The position numbers and the translations under genes are program-made. Shown here piece by piece: positions 25,160-31,215 of a stretch of DNA of 38,299 nt. The number at the start of each line of letters is the position of its first letter. Positions within the stretch are counted from its first letter, which is position 1. Source of the DNA: Syntrophomonadaceae bacterium (GTDB lineage Bacteria > Bacillota > Dethiobacteria > DTU022); assembly GCA_003553895.1 (NCBI GenBank), contig PWFM01000039.1:1-38299 (forward strand). Reading direction: 5' to 3'. Under the pieces are notes generated by a model. That model did no database searches. It was not told where the DNA came from and saw only the letters and a list, made by a program, of their open reading frames with translations.

Positions 25160-25238
25160 AGCCACCCTGTAGAAATTAAAGCCTTTTTTTAGTATTATAG
25201 ACATGATTACCAAAAACATTTCCCGGGGAATGGATCCT

Positions 25239-27425
25239 ATGGCGGTTAAAGAGAAAAAGCTCAATGAATTGAAAAAAAGAATCCAGCGCTACTATCCGGA
25301 CCTGGAGGACTGGGAACTGGTCGAACAGGCTTATAACTTTTCGGTGCAGGCCCATTCCGGCCAGCTTCGCGAATCGGGCGAATCTTATATCACCCATCCG
25401 CTGGGGGTAGCGCTGATCCTGACCGAACTGGAACTGGACCTGGTTACAATAGTGGCCGGGCTGCTCCATGATGTGGTCGAAGATACTCCGGTCACCCTGG
25501 ATCAGATCCAGGATCAATTCGGAGAAGAAGTAGCCGCCCTGGTGGACGGGGTAACCAAGCTGAGCCGCCTCGATTTCACCTCCAAGGAAGAGCAGCAGGC
25601 GGAAACCCTGCGCAAGATGTTTATCGCCATGGCCCAGGATATCCGGGTGGTTCTGATCAAGCTGGCCGACCGGACCCATAACCTGAGGACGCTCCGCTAC
25701 CTGAATACCCACAAGCAAAAAGAAATCGCCCGGGAAACTATAGAAATATATTCGCCCCTGGCTCATCGGCTGGGAATTTACATGATCAAATGGGAGCTCG
25801 AAGACCTCGCCTTTCGCTACCTTCAGCCCGATGATTATTTCGAGCTGGTGGATAAGCTGGCCAAGAAGAGGCGGGAGCGCGAAAAATTTATTAACCGGAT
25901 CATCTGGATTCTGCAGGATTACATCTCTGAGGCCAATATCGAAGCGGAAATACAGGGCCGTCCCAAGCACCTCTACAGCATTTATAACAAGATGAAGTCC
26001 CAGGGTAAGGACCTGAGCGAGATTTACGACCTGACCGCGATCCGGATAATTGTGGACACCGTCAAGGATTGCTATCATACTTTAGGCATTGTCCACACCA
26101 TCTGGAAGCCCATTCCGGGCCGTTTCAAAGACTTTATCGCCATGCCCAAGCCCAACATGTACCAATCATTGCATACCACCGTTTTTGCCGCTGAGAACGA
26201 ACTGGCCGAGATCCAGATCAGGACCTGGGACATGCACCGCACCGCCGAATACGGAATCGCCGCCCACTGGCGCTACAAAGAAAATGTAAGAGAAACAGAA
26301 ACACCGGACGAAAAGCTGACCTGGCTGCGCCAGCTTCTGGAGTGGCAGCATGATTACCGCGATGCCCGCGATTTTATCAAAGACCTGAAAGGAGAGCTGT
26401 TCACCGATGAGGGCTTTGTCTTTACTCCCAAGGGAGATGTAATCGATCTCCCGGCCGGGTCGGTTACCTTGGATTTTGCCTATAAAATCCATACCGATGT
26501 TGGCAACCACTGCACCGGAGCCAAGGTCAACGGGCGCCTGGTGCCCCTGGATTACCAGCTAAAAACCGGGGATATGGTCGAAGTAGTTACCTCGAAACAG
26601 GGATCGCCAAGCCGGGACTGGCTCAAGTTTGTCAAAACCTCCCACGCCAAGAACAAGATCCGCAACTGGTTTAAAAAAGAACGGCGGGAAGAGAATATCG
26701 AGAAGGGCCGGGAGATGCTGGAAAGAGAGATCCGGCGTATCAATGTAGAGCAGCGAATTTCTTTAAAAAGCGACCTGCTTGAAGAAGCCGGGCGGAGTTT
26801 CAATATCCTGACCGTGGAAGACCTCTACGCTGCCATCGGCTACGGGGGCATTTCAGTCAACCAGGTTATCAGCCGCCTGCGGGAAGAATACAAGCGCAAG
26901 TACGGGGAAGAAGAGAAAGAAAAATCAACGCCTGACGTCAAGCCGGTCAAGCGGCCCAAGCATCAATCGGTGGGCATATCAATCCAGGGCATGGAAGGCC
27001 TCCTGGTCCGGGTGGCCCGCTGCTGCAATCCGGTGCCGGGCGATGATATTATCGGCTTTATTACCCGCGGCCGCGGCGTGTCGGTGCACAGGCGGGACTG
27101 CCCCAACCTGGCCCAGAAAACGTCCGAAAAAGGCCGGTTCCTGGAGGCTTCATGGGCAGGAGAACCGGAGGCGTCATACCCGGTGGAGGTTGAAATCACT
27201 GCTGAAGATCGTAAAAACCTCCTGGCCGACATCATGTCTTCAGTAAACGAAAGTAAAGTCGACATTACGGCGGTCAATGCCAGGGCCGATAAAAATAACC
27301 TGGCTACTATTTACCTGACCATGGTGGTAAGAGATCAGGCCCACCTGGATCAAATCATGGCAAAAATAAAGAAGATTAAAGAAGTATACGAAGTTCGTCG
27401 TTATGTGTACGGATCAAACAATTAA
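25239..27425 (+). CDS. relA: Bifunctional (p)ppGpp synthetase/hydrolase Rel
   Basis: HD domain LHDVVED, KLADRTHN, GRPK, YQSLHT, EIQIRT, TGS domain, CCNPVPGD, C-terminal ACT. Start 25239 or 25230. Confidence 0.97.
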   Translation: MAVKEKKLNELKKRIQRYYPDLEDWELVEQAYNFSVQAHSGQLRESGESYITHPLGVALILTELELDLVTIVAGLLHDVVEDTPVTLDQIQDQFGEEVAALVDGVTKLSRLDFTSKEEQQAETLRKMFIAMAQDIRVVLIKLADRTHNLRTLRYLNTHKQKEIARETIEIYSPLAHRLGIYMIKWELEDLAFRYLQPDDYFELVDKLAKKRREREKFINRIIWILQDYISEANIEAEIQGRPKHLYSIYNKMKSQGKDLSEIYDLTAIRIIVDTVKDCYHTLGIVHTIWKPIPGRFKDFIAMPKPNMYQSLHTTVFAAENELAEIQIRTWDMHRTAEYGIAAHWRYKENVRETETPDEKLTWLRQLLEWQHDYRDARDFIKDLKGELFTDEGFVFTPKGDVIDLPAGSVTLDFAYKIHTDVGNHCTGAKVNGRLVPLDYQLKTGDMVEVVTSKQGSPSRDWLKFVKTSHAKNKIRNWFKKERREENIEKGREMLEREIRRINVEQRISLKSDLLEEAGRSFNILTVEDLYAAIGYGGISVNQVISRLREEYKRKYGEEEKEKSTPDVKPVKRPKHQSVGISIQGMEGLLVRVARCCNPVPGDDIIGFITRGRGVSVHRRDCPNLAQKTSEKGRFLEASWAGEPEASYPVEVEITAEDRKNLLADIMSSVNESKVDITAVNARADKNNLATIYLTMVVRDQAHLDQIMAKIKKIKEVYEVRRYVYGSNN

Positions 27426-27532
27426 GGACCGGTTTTTCAGGCGCCGCCTTTTGCTCTCGTTTAAACAATTAAGCGAGCATAGTGAAGCTGTTCATGAAAA
27501 AGCCAGTCTGGACAAATCAGGGGAGGTGCCAG

Positions 27533-27982
27533 ATGAGGGCAGTGGTTCAAAGAGTGCGCCGGGCGCACGTAGAAGTGGGTGGCGAAAAAGTGGGGGAAAT
27601 AGGGCCCGGCATGGTGGTTTTTTTGGGAGTCGGCCGCGAAGACTCCGAAAAAGACAATGACTACCTGGCTTCCAAAATAGCCGGCCTGCGGATTTTTGAA
27701 GATAATGAGGGCTTGATGAACCTTTCGGTCCGGGAATGCGGTGGAGGGGTTCTGTGTATCTCCCAGTTTACCCTTTACGGCGATTGCCGCAAGGGACGCC
27801 GTCCCGGTTTTTCAGCAGCAGCGCCTCCGGAGCAGGCGCAGCGATTATACAATGATTTTTGTGACCGCCTCAGGGGCTTCGGCCTCAAGGTTGCTACAGG
27901 GCAGTTCCAGGAACATATGCGCATCCTGGTCGATAATGACGGTCCGGTAACGATGCTCCTTGACAGCAAGAAGCAATTTTAG
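27533..27982 (+). CDS. dtd: D-aminoacyl-tRNA deacylase
   Basis: [38 protein letters not shown] before ATG 27533. Confidence 0.97.
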
Positions 27983-28110
27983 GAAAATTACCAGGTAGGC
28001 CTGGTCCGCTCTTGAAGCGCTGCAGCAACAGTGCCAGGGTAGCTGAAGAGCCAGGCCGTGATTTTAAAACAGGCAATTACATTTATTTATTGGTGGAGAG
28101 GAGCTAGAGA

Positions 28111-31100
28111 ATGAAATATAAGGCACCGCGCGGGACACGAGATATATTACCGGAAGAAGCAAAAAAGTGGCATTACCTCGAATCAATGTTTATGAAGTTT
28201 TGCGACCTTTATGGCTTCGGTGAAATCAGGACACCCATGTTTGAACAAACCGAGCTATTTGCCCGCAGTGTTGGCGAAGACAGCGATATTGTTTCCAAGG
28301 AAATGTATACCTTTAAGGATCGCAGCGGGCGCGATCTGACCCTGCGCCCGGAGCTGACCGCTGCCGTGGCCAGGGCTTACCTGGAGCACAACCTGGGGGA
28401 AAAACCCCAGCCGATCAAGCTCTATTACAGCGGCCCCATGTTTCGTTATGATCGTCCCCAGGCCGGCCGTTATCGCCAGTTTAACCAGTTTGGCCTGGAA
28501 ATTTTCGGATCTGAACATGCCGCTGCCGATGTGGAAGTAATATCGTTTTGCTACAATTTTTTCAGAGCCCTGCATATTGAAAATATCTCTATCGAAATCA
28601 ACAGCGTCGGTTGTCCGGCCTGTCGGCCCCGGTACAGGGAGAACCTGGTGCCGTACCTGGAAAACCTGGAAAACGGCCTCTGCGATGACTGCCGCAACCG
28701 CTATAAAAACAATCCCCTGAGGGTCCTGGATTGCAAGCAAGAAAGCTGCCGGGAACAGGTTAAAGATGCGCCCCGCCTGGTCGATCACCTCTGCCCGGAT
28801 TGCGCCACTAATTTTGAAACCGTAATAAGTCTGCTTACCAGGTTGAATATACCTTATAACCTTAACCCCAACCTGGTCCGGGGTCTTGATTATTACACCC
28901 GCACAGCATTTGAAATCAGCGCCGGAGGCGCCGGGGCCCAGGCCTCGTTATGCGGCGGGGGGCGTTATGATCACCTGGTTGAGCATATCGGCGGGCCCCA
29001 GGTGCCCGGTGTAGGAGTAGCTTTTGGCGTGGAGCGGATTATGCTGGCCATGGAGTGGGATAAAATCAAAGCCGAGCCCGGTTTGCCCGTATTCATTGCC
29101 ACTGCCGGCAGCGGGCTGGAAGGAGAAGCCCTGGCCCTGGCGGCCGAACTGCGCAGCGGGGATGTGCCCGCAGAAACCGATTTGCTTGCAAGAAGCCTGA
29201 AAGGGCAGATGAAGTACTCCGGGCGGCGGGGTTTCAGCCGGGTGGTAATTATTGGGGAAAAAGAAATAGAACAGGGCCTTGTAACCCTGCGGGATATGGA
29301 AAGCGGGGAGCAAAAAGAAATGCCCCGCCGGTCTCTTCTGGATCAACTAACCGGCAAAGCCCCGGTGCCGGGTCCGGCCGAAGAAGAGGGCGGGCCGCTG
29401 GACGAGGCGGAAGTGATTATGCCCGGGCGGCCGGGCAGCCATATAGAGGAGGCCCAAAAAACGCATTACTGCGGCAAACTGGACGCCGGACATGTAAATA
29501 AAGAAGTGGCCCTTGCCGGCTGGGTAGGTAAGCGCCGCGATCACGGCGGTTTGATTTTTATCGACCTGCGCGATCGCAGCGGCCAGGTGCAGCTGGTTTT
29601 TGATCAGCGCCAGGGAAAAGGCCTTTTTCAGCAGGCCGAAAGCCTGCGCAGCGAGTATGTGGTGGCTGTAAAAGGAGAGGTCCTGCGCCGGTCTCCCGAG
29701 ACCGTTAACCCTTCCCTGCCTACCGGTGAAATTGAAGTCCGGGTTACGGCAATGGAGATTTTAAACAGTTCGAGAACCCCTCCTTTCTATATCGAAGATA
29801 ATCTTAATGTAGATGAAAACCTGCGCCTGCGTTACCGCTACCTCGATTTAAGGCGACCGGAAATGTTGAAGCGCCTTCAACTGCGCCACCGGGCAGTAAA
29901 AATGATCCGCGATTACATGGATCGCTACGATTTCCTGGAAGTGGAGACCCCGGTGCTGACCCGCAGCACCCCCGAAGGGGCCAGGGACTTTTTAGTCCCG
30001 AGCAGGGTGCAGGGTGGCGAGTTTTATGCCCTGCCTCAGTCGCCCCAGCTTTTCAAGCAGCTGCTCATGGTCAGCGGAATTGAACGCTATTTCCAGATCG
30101 TGCGCTGTTTCCGGGATGAAGATTTAAGGGCCGATCGGCAGCCCGAATTTACCCAGGTTGATATTGAAACCTCTTTTTTCAGCGCCGAAAACCTTTTTGC
30201 CCTTACCGAAGGTTTGGTGGCCGAGCTCTGGGAAAAAATCCACGGGCGGGAAATTAAGCGTCCCTTTGTCCGTATTCCTTACCGGGAAGCGATGAACCGG
30301 TTTGGCACTGACAAGCCCGATCTGCGATATACAATGGAACTGGCAGACCTGGAGGAGCCGGCCGGAAAAAGCGAGTTTAAAGTTTTTAAAACGGCCCTGG
30401 AAGACGGTGGAGCAGTCAAGGGCCTGCGCATCCCGGGCGGAAAACGTCTCAGCCGTAAAGACCTGGATGATCTGACCCTGCAGGCCCGCCAGCTGGGGGC
30501 CAGAGGCCTGGCCTGGGCTTATGTAGAAGAGGAAGGCTGGCGTTCACCGATCAGCAAATTTTTTAGTGAAGAGCTGATCGAAGAGATTAATATAAAGATG
30601 AGGGCTGAACCCGGCGATGTCCTGCTTTTTGTAGCCGACCGGTGGCATACAGCCTGCACTGTCCTGGGGCACCTGCGCTCTAAGTTTGCCCCGGCCGATC
30701 TTCCTGAAGAGCCGCACTTCTTGTGGGTGGTTGATTTCCCCCTCTTTCACTATAATGAAGAGGAACAGCGTTATGATTCTGATCATCACCCCTTTACAGC
30801 CCCCCGGCCTGAAGACATGGACCTCCTGGAAAAAGAGCCCCTTTCCGTCCGGGCCCGCGCTTACGACCTGGTCCTCAACGGTGTGGAAATTGGAGGCGGC
30901 AGCATGCGTATTCACGATGCCGCCACCCAGGCTAAGATATTTGGCCTGCTGGGGCTTTCAGAAGAGGAGAGCAGGGAGAAATTTGGCTTCTTATTGGAGG
31001 CCCTGTCATATGGCGCTCCGCCGCATGGCGGGATAGCGCTGGGCCTGGATCGCCTGGCCGCCCTTTTAAGCGGTGACGATTCAATCCGCCAGGTAATCCC

Positions 31101-31215
31101 CTTTCCAAAAACAGCTACCGCCAGCTGCCTGATGACCGGGGCCCCTTCCCTTGTTTCCGAAAAACAGCTGGAGGAGTTGGGAATAAAAATGGCGCCGGAA
31201 AAAGAAGATAAGTGA
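28111..31215 (+). CDS. Fused histidyl-tRNA synthetase / aspartyl-tRNA synthetase (HisS-AspS)
   Basis: aa 1-~413 is a complete HisRS (PRGTRD, LRPELTA, RYDRPQAGRYRQF, LVRGLDYY, GGGRYD, FGVERI, anticodon domain). A ~37-aa linker follows. aa ~451-1034 is a complete AspRS (THYCG, RDHGG, LRYRYLDLR, TPEGARDF, LPQSPQ, FRDEDLRADRQPEFTQ, HHPFT, GAPPHGGIALGLDR). No in-frame stop between them. Confidence 0.92.
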   Translation: MKYKAPRGTRDILPEEAKKWHYLESMFMKFCDLYGFGEIRTPMFEQTELFARSVGEDSDIVSKEMYTFKDRSGRDLTLRPELTAAVARAYLEHNLGEKPQPIKLYYSGPMFRYDRPQAGRYRQFNQFGLEIFGSEHAAADVEVISFCYNFFRALHIENISIEINSVGCPACRPRYRENLVPYLENLENGLCDDCRNRYKNNPLRVLDCKQESCREQVKDAPRLVDHLCPDCATNFETVISLLTRLNIPYNLNPNLVRGLDYYTRTAFEISAGGAGAQASLCGGGRYDHLVEHIGGPQVPGVGVAFGVERIMLAMEWDKIKAEPGLPVFIATAGSGLEGEALALAAELRSGDVPAETDLLARSLKGQMKYSGRRGFSRVVIIGEKEIEQGLVTLRDMESGEQKEMPRRSLLDQLTGKAPVPGPAEEEGGPLDEAEVIMPGRPGSHIEEAQKTHYCGKLDAGHVNKEVALAGWVGKRRDHGGLIFIDLRDRSGQVQLVFDQRQGKGLFQQAESLRSEYVVAVKGEVLRRSPETVNPSLPTGEIEVRVTAMEILNSSRTPPFYIEDNLNVDENLRLRYRYLDLRRPEMLKRLQLRHRAVKMIRDYMDRYDFLEVETPVLTRSTPEGARDFLVPSRVQGGEFYALPQSPQLFKQLLMVSGIERYFQIVRCFRDEDLRADRQPEFTQVDIETSFFSAENLFALTEGLVAELWEKIHGREIKRPFVRIPYREAMNRFGTDKPDLRYTMELADLEEPAGKSEFKVFKTALEDGGAVKGLRIPGGKRLSRKDLDDLTLQARQLGARGLAWAYVEEEGWRSPISKFFSEELIEEINIKMRAEPGDVLLFVADRWHTACTVLGHLRSKFAPADLPEEPHFLWVVDFPLFHYNEEEQRYDSDHHPFTAPRPEDMDLLEKEPLSVRARAYDLVLNGVEIGGGSMRIHDAATQAKIFGLLGLSEEESREKFGFLLEALSYGAPPHGGIALGLDRLAALLSGDDSIRQVIPFPKTATASCLMTGAPSLVSEKQLEELGIKMAPEKEDK

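Follow-up and report, generated by a model that had tools for sequence, protein, structure and literature searches.

The gene examined here lies in a stretch of 38,299 nucleotides (nt) of a Syntrophomonadaceae bacterium (assembly GCA_003553895.1, contig PWFM01000039.1, positions 1 to 38,299; the whole stretch is called the window below). It very probably encodes a genuine bifunctional synthetase, in which a complete histidyl-tRNA synthetase (HisRS) is fused via its C-terminal anticodon-binding domain to the N-terminal OB fold of an aspartyl-tRNA synthetase (AspRS) by a largely flexible tether of ~40 residues. The gene is an ATG-started open reading frame (ORF) on the + strand (28111..31215; 1034 amino acids, aa) with no internal stop and with its stop codon at 31213-31215. 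The protein would be made as a single chain of ~115 kDa (mass estimated from length), supplying both His-tRNA and Asp-tRNA. The features of the locus are the following:

28095..28103, + strand: Shine-Dalgarno-like GGAGAGGAG, 7 nt 5' of the ATG of the fused gene, read from the sequence
28111..31215, + strand: whole fused hisS-aspS ORF, 1034 aa plus stop
28111..29325, + strand: HisRS module, residues 1-405 (TIGR00442, Pfam, nearest solved chain)
29326..29451, + strand: linker, residues 406-447 (~42 residues), between the HisRS and AspRS modules
29348..29350, + strand: off-frame TAA, outside the frame of the fused gene (window locus: 0 stops in frame, 3 in frame +1)
29407..29424, + strand: linker motif A-E-V-x-L-P, here A433-E-V-I-M-P438 (protein alignment of clade A, defined below)
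29428..29442, + strand: region with a 4-residue in-frame insertion (relatives' alignment)
29452..31212, + strand: AspRS module, residues 448-1034 (PRK00476, TIGR00459, Pfam, nearest solved chains)

Both halves matched full-length models. The HisRS half matched NCBIfam hisS TIGR00442 over residues 4-405 (model positions 1-405 of 406; 521.5 bits vs. a cut-off of 286.75), and the whole-genome family search placed hisS at 28120-29325 (499.6 bits). Its Pfam domains were the class IIa catalytic core (PF13393, residues 8-310) and the HGTP-type anticodon-binding domain (PF03129, residues 327-413; 51.5 bits vs. a cut-off of 21). The AspRS half was of the bacterial type and also full length (aspS PRK00476, NF001750, residues 448-1029, model positions 3-588 of 590; 836.4 bits, cut-off 443). 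It scored above the TIGR00459 cut-off as well (749.2 bits vs. 373.85) and contained the OB-fold anticodon-binding domain (PF01336, 466-551), the class IIb core (PF00152, 568-1001) and the GAD insertion (PF02938, 759-852). In the Pfam search of the 1034-aa protein, no family, WHEP included, matched the linker residues. The nearest solved chain was 1qe0_A for the HisRS half (E 1.4e-120), and 6hhv_A and 1efw_A for the AspRS half (E about 6e-188); among solved structures no chain spans both halves, the nearest ones being separate enzymes. The original prediction of one uninterrupted 1034-aa frame holding a complete HisRS and a complete AspRS was borne out by the ORF and by the full-length NCBIfam and Pfam matches, and the linker text that it quoted is present in the translation.

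The fused gene was the only copy of both genes that family searches detected. No second hisS above the cut-off was found in the window's genome (a 1.77-Mb assembly, 78% complete) or in five relatives that are 94-100% complete, and the same held for aspS, at its own cut-off, in the window's genome and four relatives that are 98-100% complete. A separate asparaginyl-tRNA synthetase (AsnRS) was found, and the searches were therefore able to detect paralogues. In an alignment of 84 fused proteins (A1), hundreds of columns were invariant in each half, including R257-G-L-D-Y-Y262 and G283-G-R-Y286 in HisRS, and Q643-S-P-Q646, F667-R-D-E670 and G978/D980/R981 in AspRS, which we take to be catalytic signatures. 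The fused proteins formed no long branches in the tree described below. As hisS and aspS have no other copy above cut-off, the columns are invariant and long branches are absent, both activities must come from the fused gene; it is only from the sequence that we infer charging of tRNA-His by the HisRS half and of tRNA-Asp by the AspRS half.

The distribution of the fusion was analysed in all 114 genomes of the host order, 72 of them from the host family (f1, the window's own genome included) and 42 from four other families. In the host family, the match crossed the junction without a stop in 58 of the 72 genomes, belonging to 16 genera, so that the close relatives, which the original prediction had proposed to inspect for separate genes, are fused as well. 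Clearly separate hisS and aspS genes were present in five genomes of this family (G043, G040, G057, G058 and G059), hisS was terminated by a stop in two (G067, which was inspected, and G065, judged by open-frame length only), the hisS contig stopped at the junction in one (G062), fragments lay away from the junction in three (G022, G064 and G073), and three (G005, G066 and G072) gave no match at E 1e-120. An open junction was found in none of the 42 genomes of the four other families; in 41 of them the genes were separate, or in frame but interrupted by 1-4 stops, and the remaining one gave no match. The statement that hisS and aspS are normally adjacent but separate thus holds in the neighbouring families; these sister families had orthologous separate genes of 50-64% identity. 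Named carriers of the fusion were 'Firmicutes bacterium UBA993' and 'uncultured Syntrophomonadaceae bacterium'. One assembly of the set (G014) contained two fused copies on different contigs (C146:178-3237 and C258:5-2482), each 63% identical to the query, which could be a strain mixture or a true duplicate.

Protein collections gave the same distribution. When residues 300-560 were used to query a collection of 5.8 billion clusters, 84 of the best 120 matches had both domain sets and a length of 1022-1051 aa, and eight more among these 120 were truncated versions of the fused protein. An exhaustive search of 1.84 billion representatives at 50% identity, in which one member stands for each cluster, returned a single match over both halves (P0074, 1464.7 bits); the next-best representative was an ordinary AspRS (713.6 bits), and all 149 other matches covered residues 440-1034 only. 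The fusion appears, from these sequence collections, to be confined to one family of uncultured anaerobic Bacillota, because a fusion elsewhere should outscore free AspRS in the representative search. Among 80 loci from genome contigs, an open frame of >900 aa was present in only three (L033, L034 and L071). Two of these (L033 and L034) were the host family's own fusion, and L071 was rejected as an independent fusion because its AspRS stands alone, preceded by a long open frame, in a genome of high guanine-cytosine (GC) content. A second candidate lineage, the 775-aa singleton P0100 from a high-GC, 54-kb contig, was also rejected. It has a full HisRS and the first 247 positions of the AspRS model, followed by an Arg/Gly-rich tail resembling a lost frame, and judging by this sequence it is probably an assembly frameshift. 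Public annotations call the fused proteins (P0011, P0017, P0045, P0075 and others) only 'aspartate--tRNA ligase' or 'aspartyl-tRNA synthetase', leaving the HisRS half unnamed.

Next, the sequence from the HisRS anchor to the AspRS anchor was analysed in the DNA of 32 fused and 15 separate loci. The fused loci show selection for frame continuity of the fusion: their anchor-to-anchor linker was 75-150 nt long and a multiple of 3 in all 32, in-frame linker stops were present in none, and the other two frames had stops in 25 and 24 loci. Together with the open junction in 58 of 72 family genomes, this exceeds by far what would arise by chance. In the separate loci, the spacer was 64-191 nt long with 1-3 stops in the hisS frame. 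The two genes shared the same frame in seven of these 15 loci, and in four of the seven (G031, G027, G028 and G038) a single stop stood between them. Since sister lineages have in-frame hisS and aspS with a single stop between them, the loss of one stop codon is a sufficient route to the fusion, and these lineages likely display the precursor state. In one sister-family locus (G031; L020 on contig C128) the hisS TAA was followed at once by the in-frame aspS TTG start, so that a single point mutation would produce a fusion.

A quick maximum-likelihood tree (LG+G4) was built from 47 concatenated HisRS and AspRS rows, with the linker excluded; it omitted L029-L031 (no adjacent hisS), L132-L133 (no aspS) and all loci from the genome contigs. 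The fused rows formed two clades, A (23 rows, support 100) and B (9 rows, support 96), which joined the family's unfused lines in an unresolved polytomy. The best tree had two state changes, of which the well-supported branches force only one, and a single fused clade was not rejected (approximately unbiased test, p 0.43). On this phylogeny the fusion has one origin, or two closely spaced origins. The fusion would have arisen from the usual arrangement of adjacent hisS and aspS genes, the ancestral state, within one family of uncultured Bacillota (records named Syntrophomonadaceae or Firmicutes bacterium). The hisS stop codon would have been lost there, and the linker would have formed from the tail of HisRS together with what had been the intergenic spacer.

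The linker of the 84 fused proteins was 31-53 residues long (median 40). In clade A, its mean top-residue frequency was 0.35, compared to 0.81 in HisRS and 0.83 in AspRS. The 68 clade-A proteins shared the motif A-E-V-x-L-P (A 65%, E 62%, V 75%, L 82%, P 96%), with the loose pattern present in 50 and the strict AEVxLP in 23 of them. In 48 of the 50 loose-pattern proteins the motif was located exactly 18 residues ahead of the Cys of THYCG, the start of AspRS, and the variation in linker length was on the HisRS side of the motif. In this alignment A-E-V-x-L-P acts like an extension, at fixed spacing, of the N-terminus of the AspRS module. In the window's protein, the distance to the Cys was 22 residues and not 18, owing to a 4-residue insertion found in this genome only, among 23 aligned relatives. 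The insertion sits in a CCGGGC-repeat context, which suggests that it arose by replication slippage. The clade-B linker (genera g28, g4, g2 and g33) was rich in Gly, Pro, Ala and Glu, and the motif was present in none of 16 clade-B proteins. We rejected the motif as a relic of the aspS ribosome-binding site and start: all third positions vary, with E mostly encoded by GAA and L mostly by CTG. The L codon was start-capable (ATG or TTG) in only four of 18 clade-A loci, the others having CTG, CTT, TTA or ATA, and no conserved internal start or Shine-Dalgarno sequence was found in the linker among these 18 loci; by this comparison, the aspS half is without a conserved start of its own. In unfused relatives, AspRS started four or five residues before THYCG and the motif was absent. 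From the variation at synonymous positions and the motif-free unfused relatives, we conclude that the motif is conserved at the protein level and is younger than the fusion.

The structure of the full chain was predicted with AlphaFold2 from 84 aligned sequences. The predicted local distance difference test score (pLDDT) was <50 at residues 416-429 and 441-445, while the block 431-440 reached 72 between flanking blocks of 31 and 58. The N-terminal part of the linker was modelled as a short helix continuing HisRS. For a 241-aa construct running from the anticodon domain of HisRS through the linker to the OB fold of AspRS, the prediction used 23 clade-A sequences; both domains had a pLDDT >90, residues 419-446, motif included, were <50, and the predicted template modelling score (pTM) was 0.46. 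Residues about 416-446 are thus predicted to be flexible, with no fixed orientation between the two domains. Complex prediction of HisRS 1-410 against linker plus AspRS 428-1017 (score 0.00, mark 0.32) gave no answer either way. Free HisRS and AspRS are class II homodimers, and because of this a closed two-chain particle is proposed: two chains would most likely pair through both modules at a fixed 1:1 stoichiometry, as structural knowledge of the separate enzymes suggests. Open-ended chains would be the alternative assembly. The closed bifunctional dimer, higher-order network or mini multi-synthetase complex of the original prediction is neither supported nor contradicted by these models. It is possible, although doubtful, that the fusion forms a defined closed particle via both dimer interfaces, in which A-E-V-x-L-P acts as a docking or regulatory element coupling both activities or their tRNA handling.

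Several other explanations of the gene were weighed. A sequencing or assembly indel might have erased the hisS stop or merged two frames. Indels are possible in metagenome-assembled genomes, the off-frame TAA at 29348-29350 noted in the original prediction was confirmed in the sequence, and one unrelated high-GC singleton, P0100, resembles such an error. However, this reading was refuted, and its chance is practically nil. Logan contigs from sequencing runs were aligned to positions 28900-29900 of the window, with runs of small word share (X5-X8, X10 and X11) excluded, and no indel or joint was listed in them over this stretch. A 1400-nt contig of run X1, possibly the source sample, covered all of it with 5 substitutions and 0 gaps, and contigs from two other soda-lake studies crossed the junction at 29279-29592 (run X3, record 7; 1 difference, 0 gaps) and at 29312-29835 (run X4, record 11; 3 differences, 0 gaps). 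Independent contigs without an indel therefore extend across 29279-29835, where a read-level check for an indel or stop had been proposed. Moreover, the frame is kept in 58 genomes despite diverged linkers. It is exceedingly improbable that one half is a non-catalytic paralogue, such as a HisZ-like regulator, with the true synthetase elsewhere. The partial HisZ score (TIGR00443, 189.4 bits) points that way, but it lies below the cut-off of 271.65 and hisS is well over its own; in addition, the near-complete genomes had no other hisS or aspS above cut-off in searches that did detect AsnRS.

Two further readings concern the products of the gene. As a polyprotein, the chain would be processed post-translationally within the linker, perhaps at A-E-V-x-L-P or close to it, and would release ordinary separate dimers; the role of the fusion would then be limited to enforcing equal synthesis. 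A short conserved motif at a fixed spacing to the AspRS start, in an otherwise variable and predicted-flexible linker, may look like a processing site. Nevertheless we regard processing as unlikely: the second fused clade (16 of the 84 proteins) is without the motif and yet fused, no linked protease gene is present in the window, and bacteria rarely make housekeeping enzymes as processed polyproteins. An extra ribosome start in the linker, here at M437, could instead yield free AspRS besides the fusion. The L position of the motif is ATG in the window's genome and in G003, and TTG in G009 and G015. This route is very unlikely, as the codon is a non-start codon in 14 of the 18 clade-A loci, no Shine-Dalgarno sequence is conserved, synonymous positions vary freely, and a promoter and terminator scan revealed nothing distinctive at the junction. 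Some observations do weigh against a bifunctional HisRS-AspRS chain. The sole RNA-library contig aligned (metatranscriptome X9, 197 nt, 29028-29224) lies inside HisRS and not at the junction. Cleavage of the linker after translation is compatible with its sequence and must still be reckoned with. In the window the ATG of M437 follows a weak GAGG 11 nt upstream, and some internal initiation there is possible in this genome, as read from the sequence. The full-length AlphaFold2 model is modest (pLDDT 68.1, pTM 0.46), and the low pLDDT of the motif in the 241-aa construct gives no structural support for its docking. Finally, a neutral ratchet, in place of a selective benefit, could be the cause of the long retention of the fusion.

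The HisRS-AspRS fusion is EPRS-like in design and not a member of the EPRS family, having HisRS and AspRS modules and no WHEP. Each combines within a single polypeptide two complete synthetases that differ in specificity, with a non-catalytic linker between them, and both fusions are conserved over a large clade. EPRS, however, joins a class I GluRS and a class II ProRS via structured WHEP repeats and is part of the eukaryotic multi-synthetase complex, whereas the fusion described here joins two class II dimeric enzymes by a predicted-flexible linker without a Pfam domain in a bacterial host. Compared to the ordinary Bacillota hisS-aspS pair, the gene order, the upstream neighbours relA and dtd and the orthologous sequences are the same, but the fusion has no stop codon, aspS start codon or aspS ribosome-binding site between the halves, and about 25-50 linker codons take the place of the 64-191 nt spacer. 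The AspRS-GatC fusion (NF009460 / PRK12820) is likewise a bacterial AspRS with a covalently fused, translation-related partner; its partner is a small C-terminal GatC and not a second synthetase, and the window's protein scored only 639.8 bits vs. the NF009460 cut-off of 1379, with the match ending at model position 618 of 723.

No description of a HisRS-AspRS fusion was found in the literature, subscription journals and supplements being outside the scope of the search. The term 'HisRS-AspRS' was found in no paper, and the papers retrieved with 'hisS-aspS' mention no fusion in their titles or in the opening part of their abstracts. In the available part of the AARS Online review (PMC11580382), EPRS is named as a fusion example, and the fused or split isoforms are EPRS, double-length TyrRS, fused GlyRS, AlaRS, PheRS and PylRS, with HisRS-AspRS not among them. 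The double-length TyrRS of trypanosomatids and the fused (alpha-beta)2 GlyRS are also fused synthetase isoforms (PMC11580382, same part), but they combine copies or subunits of the same synthetase with one specificity, while two specificities are combined here. MprF-LysRS is the only fusion mentioned in the accessible text of a survey of >2500 prokaryotic genomes (PMC5388404), and a MetRS-aminotransferase fusion appears in that of PMC7694997. The HisRS-AspRS protein is thus apparently a conserved bacterial two-synthetase fusion that has been undescribed so far.

The neighbours of the fused gene are ordinary core genes: aroC, aroB, secD, secF, recJ, relA and dtd upstream, and 6S RNA, mgtE, mraZ, rsmH, ftsL, a penicillin-binding protein gene and murE downstream. 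relA/spoT (740 aa) and dtd (D-Tyr-tRNA deacylase) are located directly upstream (25203-27982), and relA-dtd-hisS-aspS is the usual Bacillota arrangement. The 6S RNA is located 132 nt past the fused gene (RF00013, 31347-31527, + strand; 97.4 bits, full model 1-187). The listed start of the mgtE ORF (31514) overlaps the 3' end of the 6S RNA, and mgtE therefore probably starts downstream of the listed position. No T-box leader was detected in the window at the Rfam gathering score (the 128-nt spacer 5' of the fused gene was not searched at laxer thresholds), and no tRNA gene was present in the window.

Descriptions of fusions between two different tRNA synthetases usually treat them as a trait of animals (EPRS) and of eukaryotic complexes. 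If the closed, coupled particle considered above proved true, the HisRS-AspRS protein would have evolved independently in bacteria as a counterpart to the synthetase fusions and complexes of eukaryotes. As the fused proteins are named as AspRS only, automated reconstructions may call hisS missing in these genomes. With the likely precursor state still present in sister lineages, the path of the fusion would be reconstructable and the two states could be compared. A fusion found across the family, as the only source of two essential activities, would offer a simple natural system for studying stoichiometry, the assembly of obligate dimers, tRNA handling and regulation.

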